Assembly (NCBI RefSeq): GCF_058153355.1
Contig: NZ_CM177019.1
Length of the DNA stretch: 64,000 nucleotides
Direction: 5' to 3' (one strand)
Below the pieces are notes generated by a model that was not told the DNA's origin, ran no database searches, and was given only the letters and a program-made list of their open reading frames with translations. Positions 16,648-63,893 of this stretch are shown piece after piece (position 1 is the first letter of the stretch; every line of letters begins with the position of its first letter). A program made the position numbers and the translations under genes.

Positions 16648-17401
16648 GTTGTCACCCTGGACCTGGTCGTACATTTAAGAAATTAAATCATTTCAACTTG
16701 GTTGTTAACGCAACCTGTATTTTGTTAACGCCGCGTTACGATGGAAAGTATGTCTGCGGAAATATTTTTAATAACTCACCCGCGCGTTGTATTTTTCTTT
16801 TTTTGTTCATACCAAAGTATTAAAACCCACGTAAATACGCTGTTATCTACGCAAAAAAAATATTTTGTTTTCTTTCAAATTTCGGTTTTCCGCAATCAAA
16901 AATCACCAGACAGTCATTCTTCTTGCCCGTCGCTGATTGCTGCGATATGTATTGCGCACAAGCCGTGACAAACCTCGTCTTTTTGCAGTAAAAAATTGTC
17001 CACGGAGGTGTGGAGAAAAAACAAGAACGTTTTACATGACGAAAGGACTACACCGAAATATTTTTATATGCATTATTAGCAAGTTAGCACCATTTGTATG
17101 ATTTTTTAAAATTGTGCAAGAAAAACCAAATGTACAACTTTTCTATCATTTCTAAACTTAATAAAACCTTCAGATTAACATTTTAATATAACGAGTTACA
17201 TTTAGTTACATGTTTAACACTTGATTTAAGATTTGTAATGGCTAGATTGAAATCAGATGTAATCCATTAGTTTTATATTTTACCCATTTAGGGCTGATTT
17301 ATTACTACACACAGCAGTGCAACATCTGTCAGTACTTCTGGTGCTTCTATTTTAGAGGCAGCTGTCAGGTGTGCGATCAATAAAAAAAGCGGGGTTTCAT
17401 C
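16648..17401. promoter_or_regulatory. csgBAC / csgDEFG divergent intergenic control region (about 750 bp, AT-rich)
   Basis: long AT-rich spacer between divergent csgB and csgD; position corresponds to the well-studied curli regulatory region; individual binding sites not mapped here. Confidence 0.75.
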
Positions 17402-22946: not shown

Positions 22947-23034
22947 GGTGAGGTGTCCGAGTGGCTGAAGGAGCACGCCTGGAAAGTGTGTATACGGCAA
23001 CGTATCGGGGGTTCGAATCCCCCCCTCACCGCCA
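22947..23034 (+). tRNA. serX: tRNA-Ser (anticodon GGA), 88 nt with long variable arm
   Basis: ggtgaggtgtccgagtggctgaaggagcacgcctGGAaa...gggggttcgaatcccccctcaccgcca; cloverleaf by eye, CCA-encoded 3' end. Confidence 0.9.
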
Positions 23035-23480
23035 TCTTTAAAGAAGAGCTCGTACGAAAGTACGGGCTTTTTTTTTCGTATATTGCACACACCGGGGGGA
23101 TGAGAAGCCCCGACAGGGGTTCGACAACTGGCGACAGCCAGTTGGACAGACCGTGAACGCAGTGAGCGGGCTGCCCGCAGGGCGAGCGAAGCGAGTCAAT
23201 CCCCCCCTCACCGCCATCTTTAAAGAAGAGCTCGTACGAAGGTACGGGCTTTTTTTTCGTATATTGCACACACCGGGGGATGAAAAGCCCCGACCGGGGT
23301 TCGACAACTGGCGACAGCCAGTTGGACAGACCGTGAACGCAGTGAGCGGGCTGCCCGCAGGGCGAGCGAAGCGAGTCAATCCCCCCCTCACCGCCATCTT
23401 TAAAGAAGAGCTCGTACGAAGGTACGGGCTTTTTTTTCGTATATTGCACACACCGGGGATGAAAAGCCCTGACCGGGGTA
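23016..23480 (+). repeat. tandem direct repeat array, about 2.6 copies of a ~180-bp unit, each unit beginning with a 19-nt copy of the serX 3' end and a hairpin+T-run
   Basis: aatccccccctcaccgcca recurs at 23016, 23198, 23378; following ~160 bp nearly identical between copies, with internal 8-bp stem caactggc/gccagttg. Confidence 0.85.
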
Positions 23481-24760: not shown

Positions 24761-25684
24761 TTAACTGTATGCATGTAGCGTACGTTGGCAAAGTGCTGAA
24801 CGTACGCAATCCTCTTTACCGAATCGGACGATCCCGACCATTTCATCTTCTTCGAAACGTTCCAGCGCGTCACTTAATCCGGAGCGCACGCCGCGAGGTA
24901 AATCGCATTGCGTGATATCACCGTTGACAATAACCGTCACGTTCTCCCCGAGGCGGGTTAAAAACATTTTCATTTGCGCGGCAGTCACATTCTGCGCCTC
25001 GTCAAGAATGACGACTGCATTTTCAAAGGTACGTCCACGCATATAGGCGAACGGCGCAATTTCCACCTTCCCTATTTCCGGTCGCAGGCAGTACTGCATA
25101 AAGGAAGCCCCTAAGCGACGGACCAGCACGTCGTAGACCGGGCGAAAATAGGGAGCAAACTTTTCTGCGATATCACCAGGTAAGAAACCAAGATCTTCAT
25201 CGGCTTGCAGAACTGGACGGGTGACGATAATCCTGTCGACATCCTTATGTATCAGGGCCTCTGCCGCTTTTGCGGCACTGATCCAGGTTTTTCCGCACCC
25301 GGCTTCGCCGGTGGCGAATATCAGCTGCTTACTCTCAATAGCCTTCAGATAGTGCAATTGCGCTTCATTTCGCGCGAGGATGGGCGAGGTATCGCGACTG
25401 TCGCGGGCCATACCAATGGCTTCTACGCCGCTCATCTGCACAAGCGAGGTGACCGATTCTTCTTCACGCTGCTTATGGCTGCGCGAATCCCGTCTCAGCA
25501 CACGTTTTGCCTCGCGACGAGCTTTGATCACTGCTTTTTGTCTTCCCATGGAGAGCACCTTGAGTTGTTTGTATTCATCACACGCGCCGTTGGCAGCGCG
25601 ATTATGCGCACGAACATCAGAGGGTTGGCTTCCTTGTAAGCCATAGTTTGCTTTTGGATAAAATGCCGAAAAACGGCTACGCAC
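24761..25684 (-). CDS. phoH: PhoH, phosphate-starvation-inducible ATPase (307-aa ATG ORF; true N-terminus uncertain, see findings)
   Basis: ORF 24761..25684; Walker A GEAGCGKT and PhoH-family core; synteny next to efeB. Confidence 0.8.
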   Translation of the reverse strand: MRSRFSAFYPKANYGLQGSQPSDVRAHNRAANGACDEYKQLKVLSMGRQKAVIKARREAKRVLRRDSRSHKQREEESVTSLVQMSGVEAIGMARDSRDTSPILARNEAQLHYLKAIESKQLIFATGEAGCGKTWISAAKAAEALIHKDVDRIIVTRPVLQADEDLGFLPGDIAEKFAPYFRPVYDVLVRRLGASFMQYCLRPEIGKVEIAPFAYMRGRTFENAVVILDEAQNVTAAQMKMFLTRLGENVTVIVNGDITQCDLPRGVRSGLSDALERFEEDEMVGIVRFGKEDCVRSALCQRTLHAYS

Positions 25685-26014: not shown

Positions 26015-26180
26015 CAGCAGGATTCGCATCAGGCATCAACGCACGAACGCCGGATGCGGCGTGAACGCCTTATCCTGCCTACCGAACCCGCACCGATTGT
26101 AGGCATGATAAGACGCGCAAACGTCGCATCAGGCATCAGCGCACGAACGCCGGATGCGGCGTAAATGCCTTATCCGCCTC
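26015..26180. repeat. REP/BIME cluster (three or more REP units) between phoH and efeB
   Basis: repeated gccggatgcggcgtgaacgccttatcc and inverted copies. Confidence 0.7.
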
Positions 26181-42054: not shown

Positions 42055-42165
42055 TTCATGCCGGATGCGGCGTGAACGCCTTATCCGGCCTATAAAACAG
42101 TGCAAATTCAATATATTGCAATCTTCTGGTAGGCCTGATAAGCATCGCGCATCAGGCAAGCTTAC
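42055..42165. repeat. REP/BIME element between rutG and ymdF
   Basis: gccggatgcggcgtgaacgccttatccggcctac plus inverted gtaggcctgataagc... Confidence 0.7.
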
Positions 42166-58651: not shown

Positions 58652-58824
58652 GGTCAGTGCGTATTTGCAGCGCGACGTTATCAAAGGTGATCATCGTCGA
58701 TTTACAAAAAATACACTTTGCCCCTAAAGGATTTCGCTCCGTCACATCGAATGCCGATGTGCGGTACTGTGAACCATGACAACATGGACAGCGGAAATGG
58801 AGATGTTGAGTAATAACGGCAACC

Positions 58825-59037
58825 TTAGAGCGTAACAACGTTCGCTGCCGCGGGACCACGTTGCCCCTGCTCAATAGAAAATTCAACTTTCTGATTTTCG
58901 TTCAGCGTGCGGAATTCATTGCTCTGGATGGCGGTGAAATGGACGAAAACGTCTTTGCTGCCATCATCAGGAGTGATAAAGCCAAAACCTTTATCTGCGT
59001 TAAACCATTTTACTAAACCAGTCATTTTATTAGACAT
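58825..59037 (-). CDS. cspG: cold-shock protein CspG (70 aa)
   Basis: ORF 58825..59037; CSD with [15 protein letters not shown] motif. Confidence 0.9.
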
Positions 59038-59322
59038 ATTTTACTTCCTTCATTTTGGGCCTTTCGGCAAACAGGGCTTTAATACAGAAACTACTTAGTG
59101 TTCAGGAGAGAGACTCAAAAGAAGGGGATAATGCCTGATAATGAGAACTGCTTTAGTAAACTACTTTGTATGCTGTCTGTCTTTCAAACCGACGCAGCTA
59201 TTAACGCATGATAATTGAGATTAAGCAATTTTTATTTTAGCCGTCCGGCGGTCTTAAATATCGCTGGCTTTATTTTATTAACCCCGTATAGTGCAGCGCA
59301 GTATTTTCAGTAAGGAATTTGT

Positions 59323-59535: not shown

Positions 59536-59544
59536 GATGACGCA

Positions 59545-59575
59545 GCTTGTTTAAAGCTGGCTGTTTTTATTAAAA
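59545..59575 (+). terminator. hairpin + T-run downstream of cspH
   Basis: cagcttgtttaaagctg followed by tttttatt. Confidence 0.55.
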
Positions 59576-59976
59576 AAGCTCAATAGTCAACATCGCACAT
59601 TATAACAAAAGTTACTTTCACCCCAGAAAACAAATCCATTTGGCCGAATATCTCTGCACCTAATAGTTATAAATGCTACTTAACAGTCAATCATAGTACC
59701 GTTTGAAACTATATCACCAACAATAGTTAATAGCTTTCTTAACAATTTTCTTATCTTTAATTTGTATTTTGCTAAGATTTATCTTATGCTCACAAGTCGT
59801 ATTTCCAGAGGGAAATCGTTAACAATCTTATATTTCTCTCTGCGCACCTTTCCCACTCGCGGTATATAGTACCGACAGTATGCGGAAAGGGAGATTTCAC
59901 AAGGATGTTATACTCAAAGTAGACAATCCTGATCTCAAGCGTACGTATTGTCCATGCGATGAATAAAGGAAAAGTT

Positions 59977-60303
59977 ATGAAACACAAGCTTTCTGCAATC
60001 CTTATGGCCTTCATGTTGACGACGCCAGCTGCGTTTGCTGCACCAGAATCAGCAAACGGGACCGAGGCAACGACGGGTACTACTGGCACCACAACGACCA
60101 CTACTGGCACCACAACGACCACTACTGGTGCCACTACGACTGCTGCTACCACCGGTGGCGTAGCTGCTGGCGCTGTCGGCACAGCGACGGTTGTCGGTGT
60201 GGCAACGGCTGTTGGTGTGGCGACTTTGGCAGTAGTTGCAGCAAATGACAGTGGCGATGGCGGTTCTCATAACACCTCAACCACCACGTCCACTACGCGC
60301 TAA
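59977..60303 (+). CDS. gfcA: threonine-rich small membrane protein GfcA/YmcD (start approximate)
   Basis: ORF 59959..60303; signal/TM segment then Thr/Gly-rich low-complexity tract. Confidence 0.8.
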   Translation: MKHKLSAILMAFMLTTPAAFAAPESANGTEATTGTTGTTTTTTGTTTTTTGATTTAATTGGVAAGAVGTATVVGVATAVGVATLAVVAANDSGDGGSHNTSTTTSTTR

Positions 60304-60409
60304 TACTGCTTTAACGCGTCAAAATTAAAGTTAAATGATACCCGGTTGCGATATTCGTACCGGGCTTTAGAGATTTGCATTTTTTTAATTAACCTTTCAA
60401 GGATTAAAG

Positions 60410-61054
60410 GTGCGCCCTCTTATTTTATCGATTTTCGCACTATTTCTTGCGGGATGTACGCACAGCCAGCAAAGTATGGTCGATACATTTCGCTCCAGCC
60501 TTTTCGATAATCAGGATATCACCGTAGCGGATCAGCAGATCCAGGCGTTGCCTTATTCCACGATGTATTTACGCCTTAATGAAGGGCAACGAATCTTTGT
60601 GGTACTGGGATATATAGAACAAGAACAAAGCAAATGGTTATCCCAGGATAACGCCATGCTGGTTACCCACAATGGACGTCTTTTAAAAACCGTCAAACTT
60701 AATAATAATCTGCTGGAAGTGACAAATTCCGGGCAGGACCCTCTGCGTAACGCGCTGGCAATAAAAGACGGCAGCCGCTGGACGCGCGATATTCTCTGGA
60801 GTGAAGACAATCATTTTCGCTCTGCGACCCTGAGTTCCACTTTTTCCTTTGCTGGATTAGAGACGCTGAATATTGCGGGTCGCGATGTGCTGTGTAATGT
60901 CTGGCAGGAAGAGGTGACTTCCACGCTGCCAGAAAAACAGTGGCAAAACACATTCTGGGTCGATTCGGCTACTGGCCAGGTTCGTCAAAGTCGGCAAATG
61001 TTAGGCGCAGGGGTTATTCCCGTAGAAATGACGTTTCTTAAACCCGCACCATGA
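60410..61054 (+). CDS. gfcB: group 4 capsule lipoprotein GfcB/YmcC (214 aa)
   Basis: ORF 60410..61054; lipobox LAGC. Confidence 0.85.
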   Translation: MRPLILSIFALFLAGCTHSQQSMVDTFRSSLFDNQDITVADQQIQALPYSTMYLRLNEGQRIFVVLGYIEQEQSKWLSQDNAMLVTHNGRLLKTVKLNNNLLEVTNSGQDPLRNALAIKDGSRWTRDILWSEDNHFRSATLSSTFSFAGLETLNIAGRDVLCNVWQEEVTSTLPEKQWQNTFWVDSATGQVRQSRQMLGAGVIPVEMTFLKPAP

Positions 61055-61797
61055 ATAAATTACAGTCGTATTTCATTGCCAGCGTACTTTACGTAATGAC
61101 ACCCCATGCCTTTGCGCAAGGAACGGTGACTATTTATCTGCCTGGCGAACAACAGCCCCTTTCCGTTGGCCCCGTGGAGAATGTTGTCCAGTTGGTGACA
61201 CAACCGCAACTGCGCGATCGCCTCTGGTGGCCTGGAGTCTTGCTGACCGACTCCGCGGCGAAAGCTAAAGCGCTTAAAGACTACCAACATGTCATGGCAC
61301 AGCTTGCTTCCTGGGAAGCAGAAGCTGACGACGATGTGGCGGCAACGATTAAATCCGTGCGCCAGCAGTTACTCAATCTCAATATCACTGGTCGCTTACC
61401 GGTCAAACTGGACCCTGATTTTGTACGAATGGATGAGAACAGCAATCCCCCGCTGGTCGGGGACTATACGCTCTATACCGTACAGCGCCCAGTGACTATT
61501 ACTCTGCTGGGTGCGGTTTCTGGGGCTGGGCAATTGCCCTGGCAGGCAGGCCGTAGCGTTACCGATTATCTGCAAGATACCCCCCGTCTTGCAGGCGCGG
61601 ACAAGAATAACGTTATGGTGATTACGCCTGAGGGTGAGACTGTCGTCGCCCCTGTTGCCCTGTGGAATAAAAGACATGTGGAACCACCGCCTGGCAGCCA
61701 GCTTTGGTTGGGCTTTTCTGCGCATGTACTGCCCGAAAAATATGCTGATTTAAATGACCAGATTGTGTCTGTTTTAACGCAACGTGTTCCTGACTGA
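61051..61797 (+). CDS. gfcC: group 4 capsule protein GfcC/YmcB (248 aa)
   Basis: ORF 61051..61797; 4-bp overlap with gfcB. Confidence 0.85.
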
Positions 61798-63893
61798 TGA
61801 AGAAGAACTCTTATCTTTTAAGCTGCCTGGCCATTGCCGTCTCCAGTGCCTGTCATGCTGAAGTATTAACCTACCCGGATCCGCTGGGTTCGTCGCAATC
61901 AGACTTTGGCGGCACAGGATTGTTGCAGATGCCAAATGCGCGCATCGCACCGGAAGGTGAATTCAGCGTCAACTACCGGGATAACGATCAATACCGTTTC
62001 TACTCCACGTCCGTGGCGCTGTTCCCATGGCTGGAAGGCACCATTCGTTATACGGATGTGCGCACACGCAAATATAGCCAGTGGGAAGATTTCAGCGGCG
62101 ATCAGTCATACAAAGACAAATCTTTCGATTTTAAACTTCGCCTGTGGGAAGAAGGTTACTGGCTACCGCAAGTGGCGTTTGGTAAACGTGATATTGCTGG
62201 TACGGGTCTGTTTGACGGTGAATATCTGGTGGCCAGCAAGCAAGCGGGGCCATTTGATTTCACCCTCGGGATGGCGTGGGGCTACGCCGGTAATGCGGGC
62301 AATATTACCAACCCGTTTTGCCGGGTGAGCGATAAATATTGTCATCGTGCAGAGTCTCACGATGCGGGAGATATCAGCTTTAGCGATATCTTTCGTGGTC
62401 CGGCGTCCATCTTTGGCGGCATTGAGTATCAAACGCCGTGGAATCCTCTGCGTCTGAAACTCGAATACGACGGCAACAATTACCAGAATGATTTTGCGGG
62501 CAAATTGCCGCAGGCAAGTCATTTCAATTTCGGTGCTGTGTATCGTGCTGCCAGCTGGGCAGATCTTAACCTTAGCTACGAGCGCGGTAACACATTGATG
62601 TTTGGCTTCACATTACGGACCAATTTCAACGATCTGCGCCCTGCCCTGCGCGATACGCCAAAACCGGCATATCAACCTGCGCCGGAATCTGAAGGATTGC
62701 AGTACACCACAGTAGCGAACCAACTTACCGCGCTGAAGTACAACGCAGGTTTTGAAGCACCGGAAATTCAGCTGCGCGATAAGACGCTGTATATGTCTGG
62801 TCAACAATACAAATACCGTGATTCTCGCGAAGCGGTCGATCGTGCCAACCGGATTCTGGTGAATAACCTGCCGCAAGGCGTTGAGAAGATTAGCGTGACG
62901 CAAAAGCGCGAGCATATGACGATGGTGACTACCGAAACCGACGTAGCCAGCCTGCGCAAACAGCTGGCCGGTACAGCGCCAGGTCAATCAGAGCCACTGC
63001 AACAACAACGTGTTGAAGCTGAAGATCTTTCTGCCTTTGGTCGGGGCTACCGTATTCGTGAAGATCGCTTTAGCTACTCTTTCAACCCAACACTTTCACA
63101 GTCGCTGGGCGGCCCGGAAGATTTCTATATGTTCCAGTTGGGGCTGATGTCCAGCGCCCGCTACTGGTTTACCGATCACCTGCTGCTTGATGGCGGTATT
63201 TTCACCAATATTTACAACAACTACGACAAGTTTAAGTCTTCGCTGTTACCCGCGGACTCTACCCTCCCCCGCGTGCGCACGCATATCCGTGACTACGTTC
63301 GCAATGACGTTTATCTCAACAACTTGCAGGCGAACTATTTTGCCGACTTAGGCAATGGTTTCTATGGCCAGGTGTATGGCGGTTATCTGGAAACGATGTA
63401 TGCCGGTGTCGGTTCCGAGCTGCTTTATCGCCCGCTAGATGCCAGCTGGGCGCTAGGTGTGGACGTTAACTACGTGAAGCAGCGTGACTGGGACAACATG
63501 ATGCGTTTCACCGATTATTCCACGCCAACAGGTTTCGTGACGGCTTACTGGAATCCGCCGACGCTCAATGGCGTACTGATGAAACTTAGCGTTGGGCAAT
63601 ATCTGGCAAAAGATAAAGGCGCAACGATCGACGTCGCCAAACGCTTTGACAGCGGCGTGGCGGTAGGGGTATGGGCGGCAATCAGTAACGTATCTAAAGA
63701 TGACTACGGCGAAGGCGGCTTTAGTAAAGGTTTTTATATCTCGATTCCGTTCGACTTGATGACCATTGGACCTAACCGCAACCGCGCGGTGGTTTCGTGG
63801 ACACCATTGACGCGTGATGGTGGACAAATGCTGTCACGCAAATACCAGCTCTATCCAATGACGGCAGAGCGAGAAGTACCGGTTGGACAATAA
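61797..63893 (+). CDS. gfcD: outer-membrane protein GfcD/YmcA (698 aa)
   Basis: ORF 61797..63893; signal peptide and lipobox; synteny. Confidence 0.85.

Follow-up and report, generated by a model that had tools for sequence, protein, structure and literature searches.

Probable recent duplication of a 21-bp unit in the threonine/glycine-rich tract of the capsule gene gfcA

The gfc locus and its surroundings

We analyzed a 64,000-nucleotide stretch of contig NZ_CM177019.1 (RefSeq assembly GCF_058153355.1), referred to below as the window. The open reading frame (ORF) at 59977-60303 on the plus strand, encoding 108 amino acids (aa) followed by a stop codon, is gfcA, with which the group 4 capsule operon begins; it was delineated from the ORF list and by alignment to the annotated gfcA genes of K-12, O169:H41, and 2013C-4282. 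An in-frame alternative ATG is present upstream, at 59959, and would yield a protein of 114 aa. The ATG at 59977 corresponds to the annotated gfcA start of the RefSeq relatives, and an AAGGA sequence (59966-59970) lies 6 nt 5' of it; on these two grounds, we take the 108-aa protein to be the GfcA product. By the figures of the alignment tool, this protein is 97% identical to K-12 GfcA and 99% identical to the product of the 2013C-4282 allele, and the sole difference in length from the reference 101-aa GfcA is a 7-aa insertion.

Directly downstream of gfcA, on the same strand, lie gfcB (60410-61054), encoding a lipoprotein of the YjbF family (Pfam PF11102, E = 7e-69), gfcC (61051-61797; PF20616 and PF06251), and gfcD (61797-63893), encoding an outer-membrane protein of the YjbH family (PF06082, E = 4e-270); the window stops inside the operon, after gfcD. 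The gene order, torS-yccM-gnsA-ymcE-cspG-cspH-gfcABCD, is that of annotated E. coli genomes. A search of GfcA against Pfam profiles, including that of the YjbE family, produced no match at E <= 0.01, and a search against NCBIfam produced only sub-threshold chance matches. The naming of GfcA by PGAP does not rest on a match to either collection: in RefSeq/PGAP annotation, the 101-aa K-12-type protein is called GfcA, and the length variants, together with some of the 101-aa alleles, are labeled 'hypothetical protein'.

The spacer between cspH and gfcA in the window (59536-59976; 441 bp) is intact and contains no insertion sequence (IS). Elsewhere, IS1 lies upstream of gfcA in K-12 and other strains, IS5 is found at this side of the gene in CAVP773 and GPT21-003, IS903B interrupts gfcB in strain 102651, and the cspH-gfcA spacer of C41(DE3) is 23 bp shorter. 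The gfcA-gfcB spacer contains a hairpin at 60337-60372 (CCCGGU...ACCGGG, with an inner UGCG/UUCG stem) that does not fold significantly better than shuffled sequences (z = -1.65). A terminator and promoter scan of this spacer detected nothing significant and did not call the hairpin a terminator. Very high levels of gfcA mRNA have been reported for EPEC (PMC3853201), and the hairpin might be related to this abundance. In other parts of the window, five regions match Rfam families above the gathering score, namely, the cspA-type thermoregulator leader on cspG (58771-59193, minus strand), Ysr251 (24766-24959, plus), ES056 (17255-17346, plus), naRNA4 (26102-26179, minus), and ES036 (42094-42136, plus), all of which are ordinary for this chromosomal region. 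A longer tandem repeat, with a 180-bp unit present in 2.6 copies at 97% identity, occupies 22947-23479, starting inside the 3' end of the tRNA-Ser(GGA) gene (22947-23034). Each copy reiterates the last ~20 nt of this tRNA along with a hairpin and a T-run; the units look like reiterated tRNA-3'-end or attachment-site-like copies.

An exact tandem duplication within gfcA

Tandem Repeats Finder (TRF) detected, in the middle of gfcA, a repeat with the 21-bp unit ACTACTGGCACCACAACGACC at 60079-60140 (3.0 copies, 92% matches, score 103). TRF and script-based comparison, along with direct reading of the sequence, resolve this region into two exact copies of the unit on the plus strand, at 60079-60099 (aa 35-41) and 60100-60120 (aa 42-48), each encoding TTGTTTT, and a diverged, older unit, ACTACTGGTGCCACTACGACT, at 60121-60141 (aa 49-55), encoding TTGATTT. 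The diverged unit matches the canonical one in 17 of the 21 positions (81%; 4 mismatches), with the first 8 nt in common. The first-pass annotation had proposed a direct repeat at about 60068-60125 that encodes a TTGTTTT-TTGTTTT tract. The unit and its translation were given correctly, and the repeat itself is genuine, but the proposed span has its left boundary 11 nt before the first copy and its right boundary within the third one.

The ACTACTGGCACCACAACGACC pair is the only exact tandem duplication with a period of 12-39 nt in the entire 64-kb window. With the codon usage of gfcA, a repeat of the peptide would be accompanied by identical DNA in the two TTGTTTT units with a probability of only about 3e-4, and the pair is therefore a duplication at the DNA level and not a convergence at the protein level. 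One of the two exact copies is missing from the 306-bp alleles of gfcA. Further downstream in the gene, a second tandem repeat, with an 18-bp unit (60187-60240, plus strand; TRF period 18, 1.9 copies at 60187-60221), encodes the peptides TVVGVA, TAVGVA, and TLAVVA and makes up much of the hydrophobic segment of GfcA.

Predicted layout of GfcA

Threonine accounts for 31.5% of the residues of GfcA encoded in the window, in agreement with the published description of the protein as 101 aa long with 30% Thr (PMC8592465). By composition, hydropathy, and structural modeling, the protein comprises an N-terminal signal-like sequence and a single hydrophobic segment. Residues 1-21, MKHKLSAILMAFMLTTPAAFA (59977-60039), followed by AP, are predicted to form a signal peptide, with a basic N-terminus and a hydrophobic core evident in the hydropathy scan; cleavage would occur after the A-F-A motif. 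Next comes a low-complexity Thr/Gly-rich tract (aa 29-59; 60061-60153) in which 22 of the 31 residues are threonines, and which is modeled with a pLDDT below 50 and no secondary structure. It is followed by a Gly/Ala/Val-rich hydrophobic segment (aa 60-89; 60154-60243), a predicted membrane helix with a hydropathy peak of 2.27, and by the polar C-terminal tail NDSGDGGSHNTSTTTSTTR (aa 90-108; 60244-60300), in which the N-D-x-G-D-G motif and the Thr-rich end are conserved across genera. The AlphaFold model, which was built on a 7-sequence alignment and has a mean pLDDT of 43, such that it is informative only with respect to the coarse pattern of helices and disorder, contains helices at residues 5-14 and 66-91 and an unstructured Thr/Gly tract. 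Thus, the tract is predicted to be a disordered linker, rich in Thr and Gly, that connects the signal peptide to the hydrophobic helix, and the extra heptad probably lengthens this flexible linker with little effect, so that the change would be near neutral.

A GfcB-anchored scan covering one genome per species identified GfcA-like layouts upstream of gfcB homologs in representatives of five other species: an Escherichia cryptic-clade genome (101 aa), E. albertii (96 aa), Cedecea (86 aa), Citrobacter (97 aa), and a gammaproteobacterial MAG; these five loci reveal the architecture and are too few to assess variation. The GfcA-like proteins of other species, in the range of 86-112 aa, share this architecture and differ in the length and sequence of the tract, indicating that the composition of the tract is conserved but its sequence is not. 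The 21-bp repeat is absent in all five of these species.

Length alleles of gfcA across strains

The gfcA gene is present in 3,607 of the 5,426 complete E. coli genomes. In about 1,800 of these genomes, for example, UTI89 and Nissle (EcN), the whole gfc-etp-etk operon is missing, and cspH adjoins appA. Among the complete genomes searched with the K-12 allele as the query, 2,512 carry a gene with at least 99% identity, 1,069 show 95-99% identity, 26 show 90-95%, and none is less similar. The gene is 306 bp long (101 aa) in K-12, 306 bp in 2013C-4282, and 324 bp (107 aa) in the O169:H41 ETEC, and alignment with these three genes shows that the window carries exactly one extra 21-bp unit. This bears out the contrast drawn in the first-pass annotation between a 108-114-aa ORF in the window and a GfcA of about 101 aa in K-12: the K-12 protein has 101 aa and lacks precisely one unit. 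Apart from the extra unit, only 2 substitutions separate the window allele from the 2013C-4282-type 306-bp allele, which is also carried by contigs encoding an identical GfcB; one of the two results in the A25S replacement.

Differences in length of 15 bp or more are rare, being found in 7 of the ~3,590 complete genomes of E. coli that carry the gene (~0.2%). Five of these genomes, all from one O169:H41 clone, carry the +18 bp allele, and the other two, CAVP773 and GPT21-003, carry a -15 bp allele (96 aa). None of the ~3,590 genomes has a 327-, 348-, or 285-bp gfcA; the 327-bp and 285-bp alleles were themselves used as queries in these searches, so that length variants would rank first. In metagenomes, all 51 contigs matched by a flank-anchored DNA pattern have the standard tract length; the pattern, which includes a middle anchor, covers -3 to +27 nt in one gap and -15 to +15 nt in the other, provided that the anchors match exactly. 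One of these contigs (L052) lacks an 18-bp unit (-18 bp; 95 aa) while retaining the standard tract length. Look-up of exact proteins in a very large gene index, where the records are blocks, which are not equivalent to genomes, returned 79,809 and 46,911 blocks for the two common 101-aa GfcA proteins (~127,000), compared with 97 blocks, representing several haplotypes, for the 94-aa form and a single assembly for the 115-aa form. Part of this index was built from k = 31 assemblies, in which an array of at least three exact 21-bp units cannot appear, and therefore the lack of a 122-aa allele and the scarcity of the 115-aa allele are only weak evidence. A clustered protein collection that does not include even the K-12 GfcA was unusable for deriving a length distribution; the GfcA search there retrieved mostly frameshifted or truncated forms, plus the -5-aa allele.

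Not all the changes follow the 21-bp unit, as exemplified by the +18, -15, and -18 bp indels. In the +18-bp allele, TACTACTGGCACCACAAC has simply been duplicated in tandem, in a register different from that of the 21-bp unit, and the -15-bp allele stems from a deletion between ACC...ACC. All the repeat-tract length variants, of 285, 288, 291, 306, 324, 327, and 348 bp, remain in frame through the repeat, and the whole tract is thus mildly prone to small in-frame indels. The suggestion of the first-pass annotation that the repeats are prone to slippage and that the length of GfcA might vary between strains holds with respect to whole-unit variation, with proteins of 94, 101, 108, and 115 aa on record. 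However, such variants are rare, and more than 99.7% of the complete genomes keep the standard length, although the length is not identical everywhere. The length of gfcA is a low-frequency in-frame coding polymorphism rather than a hypervariable trait.

Copy number change in the lineage of the window and recurrence in other backgrounds

Eight contigs on record encode a GfcD identical to that of the window, and their gfcA genes encode proteins of 101, 108, or 115 aa, with 1, 2, and 3 exact units, respectively. By exact-protein look-up, among the alleles that carry the A25S replacement (hereafter, the S25 background), the 101-aa form is found in 3 contigs, the 108-aa form, which is the allele of the window, in 3 contigs, and the 115-aa form in 1 contig, and a 122-aa form is not on record. 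The contigs with 2 and 3 units differ from each other by 0-3 SNPs over 6.3 kb, indicating that the copy number changed within a near-clonal group; the 1-unit contigs differ from these at 13-15 positions over the same length. The occurrence of 1, 2, or 3 exact units in contigs that are almost identical to the window implies that slippage in this tract is real. Slippage is probably easier once two units are identical, but the 1/2/3-unit series could also reflect two inherited events instead of continuing instability.

The same kind of change was predicted for the most common allele, and this prediction was borne out: the K-12-type protein with one additional heptad is encoded in 4 contigs. At the DNA level, there are two distinct junctions among these, with the second copy starting with either ACTACT (L082 and L084) or ACTACC (L081 and L083), and the four contigs represent two haplotypes separated by 6 SNPs in 2.4 kb. 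Gain of 21 bp thus recurs, having occurred once in the S25 background and twice, with different junctions, in the K-12-type background. Judging by the differing junctions and haplotypes, the 108-aa GfcA has at least three independent origins. Loss of a unit is represented by the K-12-type allele of 285 bp (94 aa; the 97 blocks mentioned above), for which six loci were fetched and several haplotypes were found. In the AA type, the 2013C-4282-like allele in which residues 26 and 57 are alanines and not, as in K-12, threonines, no variant with a gain or loss of 7 aa is on record unless S25 is carried as well. Thus, loss of a unit is on record in the K-12 type but not in the AA type, although the latter has the longer microhomology, so the length of microhomology alone does not predict the frequency of these events.

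Origin of the extra unit and alternative explanations

The tandem duplication, the copy-number series, the recurrence of such events, and their rarity are direct observations. Taken together, they make it highly probable that one 21-bp unit in the Thr/Gly tract of gfcA was duplicated recently and in frame, via slippage, giving rise to the window allele, and that this change is near neutral. The starting point would be the near-universal ancestral 306-bp allele, in which the two old units are only 76-81% identical. During replication, the nascent strand would misalign at the short homology shared by the beginnings of the units, which is ACTACTGG in the allelic background of the window, so that the first unit would be copied twice. 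The outcome would be two identical units, a 42-bp perfect repeat that itself could slip further, with each gain or loss of a unit adding TTGTTTT to the protein or removing it. Slippage at short direct repeats that does not depend on RecA is an established phenomenon. All the unit-wise junctions fit breakpoints located within 3-8 nt of sequence shared by the starts of neighboring units, namely, ACTACTGG in the background of the window and ACTAC or GGC in the K-12 type, and from this placement of the junctions, we infer replication misalignment. The old pair, with 76-81% identity, is stable, and two perfect units are expected to be far less so, in agreement with the 1/2/3-unit series. The function of GfcA probably depends on the composition of the tract rather than on its exact length, such that the variants would be tolerated as near neutral.

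An assembly or sequencing artefact, in which the extra unit would be absent from the real genome, is a conceivable source of any apparent duplication given that tandem repeats can be mis-assembled, but the chance of this having happened here is negligible. The identical 327-bp allele is present in at least one other independent assembly, GCA_015332025.1, which differs from the window by 2 SNPs, on which ground this explanation was rejected, and also in the Logan assembly SRR31441161; moreover, the periodic stretch of ~50 nt is shorter than the reads and generates no repeated 31-mer. Import of the entire allele by recombination from another lineage or species, as opposed to its formation in place, would account for the fact that the surrounding 20-kb region reaches no more than 98.8% identity with any complete E. 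coli genome, in contrast to the gfc genes, which are close to the 2013C-4282 type, a combination suggestive of a mosaic history. We nevertheless consider such import very unlikely: the window allele minus one unit is identical to the 1-unit S25 allele of the same lineage, no 2-unit donor in the same background is on record outside this lineage, and the other Escherichia species lack the 21-bp repeat.

The location of a tandem repeat with a variable copy number at the start of a surface-polysaccharide operon is reminiscent of phase-variable contingency loci, where a changing number of repeats would turn gfcA, or its operon, on or off. The 21-bp unit is incompatible with this type of regulation inasmuch as all the repeat-tract length variants (285-348 bp) stay in frame through the repeat, and phase variation was accordingly rejected; like the artefact, it has next to no probability. 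The repeat also lies outside the promoter, frameshifted or read-through forms involve other parts of gfcA and only some metagenomic and database sequences, and the variation is far too rare, with 7 of ~3,590 complete genomes and none of the 51 metagenomic contigs affected.

Somewhat more credible, albeit still improbable, is adaptive tuning, whereby the number of TTGTTTT heptads would be under selection, the tract serving as a spacer or a carrier of glycan sites, and the expansions in the lineage of the window would have changed the capsule. GfcA is required for the capsule (PMC3853201), modification of its Ser/Thr-rich region by the O-antigen has been speculated upon (PMC8592465), and expansions are present in 4 of the 7 contigs of the S25 sub-lineage on record. 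However, length variants amount to only ~0.2% of the strains, the 101-aa form is retained in highly diverse backgrounds, the attachment of glycans to GfcA is speculation only, and seven contigs from a near-clonal group are no evidence of selection.

Relationship to known systems and biological implications

The protein encoded in the window is the counterpart of GfcA (YmcD, b0987; 'threonine-rich inner membrane protein GfcA') of K-12, EPEC, and EHEC, the product of the first gene of gfcABCDE-etp-etk, with which it shares the cspH-gfcA-gfcB-gfcC-gfcD locus, the signal peptide, the hydrophobic segment, and the tail; it is 97-99% identical to the GfcA of E. coli relatives. Unlike K-12 GfcA, it consists of 108 rather than 101 aa, carries the A25S replacement, and has no IS1 upstream of its gene. 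More broadly, it resembles the proteins encoded at the start of gfc-like operons in Cedecea, Citrobacter, and other Gammaproteobacteria. These small predicted secreted proteins combine a Thr/Ser/Gly/Ala-rich tract with a hydrophobic Gly/Ala/Val segment and a tail rich in Thr, and the gene for a YjbF/GfcB lipoprotein follows directly downstream; in these proteins (86-112 aa), however, the tract sequences cannot be aligned, and the 21-bp repeat is missing in the five species. The gfcABCD and yjbEFGH (exopolysaccharide) operons are treated as homologous (PMC11494523), and YjbE is likened to GfcA through this literature.

With respect to the mode of variation, gfcA is similar to in-frame coding VNTRs of surface and envelope proteins in that the head-to-tail units have a length that is a multiple of three, are gained and lost one at a time, and do so recurrently. 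In contrast to the VNTR loci used for typing, the array in gfcA is very short, with 1-3 exact units, and its polymorphism (~0.2%) is far lower. Strand slippage at repeats is shared with the contingency loci of Neisseria, Haemophilus, and Campylobacter; unlike these, gfcA shows neither a frame shift nor an effect on promoter spacing and displays length polymorphism instead of on/off switching. We found no paper linking gfcA or ymcD with VNTR or MLVA, although the literature searches were poorly targeted and are not proof of absence. The window carries a new gfcA allele, and the repeat is a small, apparently unreported VNTR, a minor polymorphism in a known gene.

In EPEC E2348/69, a gfcA deletion mutant fails to form the O-antigen (group 4) capsule, and complementation from a plasmid reverses this defect (PMC3853201). 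According to a speculation of Larson et al., the Ser/Thr-rich region of GfcA might be modified by the O-antigen and exported through GfcD (PMC8592465; cf. PMC11494523). Extending this idea, the Thr/Gly heptads could be imagined as modules that attach or space the O-antigen capsule, such as glycan-bearing sites passed on to GfcD, with gain and loss of units slowly and heritably tuning the anchoring or thickness of the capsule and the copy-number series in the lineage of the window reflecting selection instead of drift; we regard this as a long shot, slightly less probable even than adaptive tuning in the general form discussed above.

At the practical level, PGAP assigns 'hypothetical protein' labels to the length variants, and k = 31 assemblies miss arrays of three or more exact units. 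The significance of the duplication in gfcA is modest, GfcA being a protein for which the requirement in group 4 capsule formation was shown in EPEC. The case of gfcA is a small example of a rule: old, diverged units are stable over more than 10^5 records, and once a perfect duplicate is present, further change is seen among near-clonal relatives. The natural alleles encoding proteins of 94, 95, 96, 101, 107, 108, and 115 aa constitute a ready set for assessing the effects of tract length and threonine content on the capsule or on the modification of GfcA.
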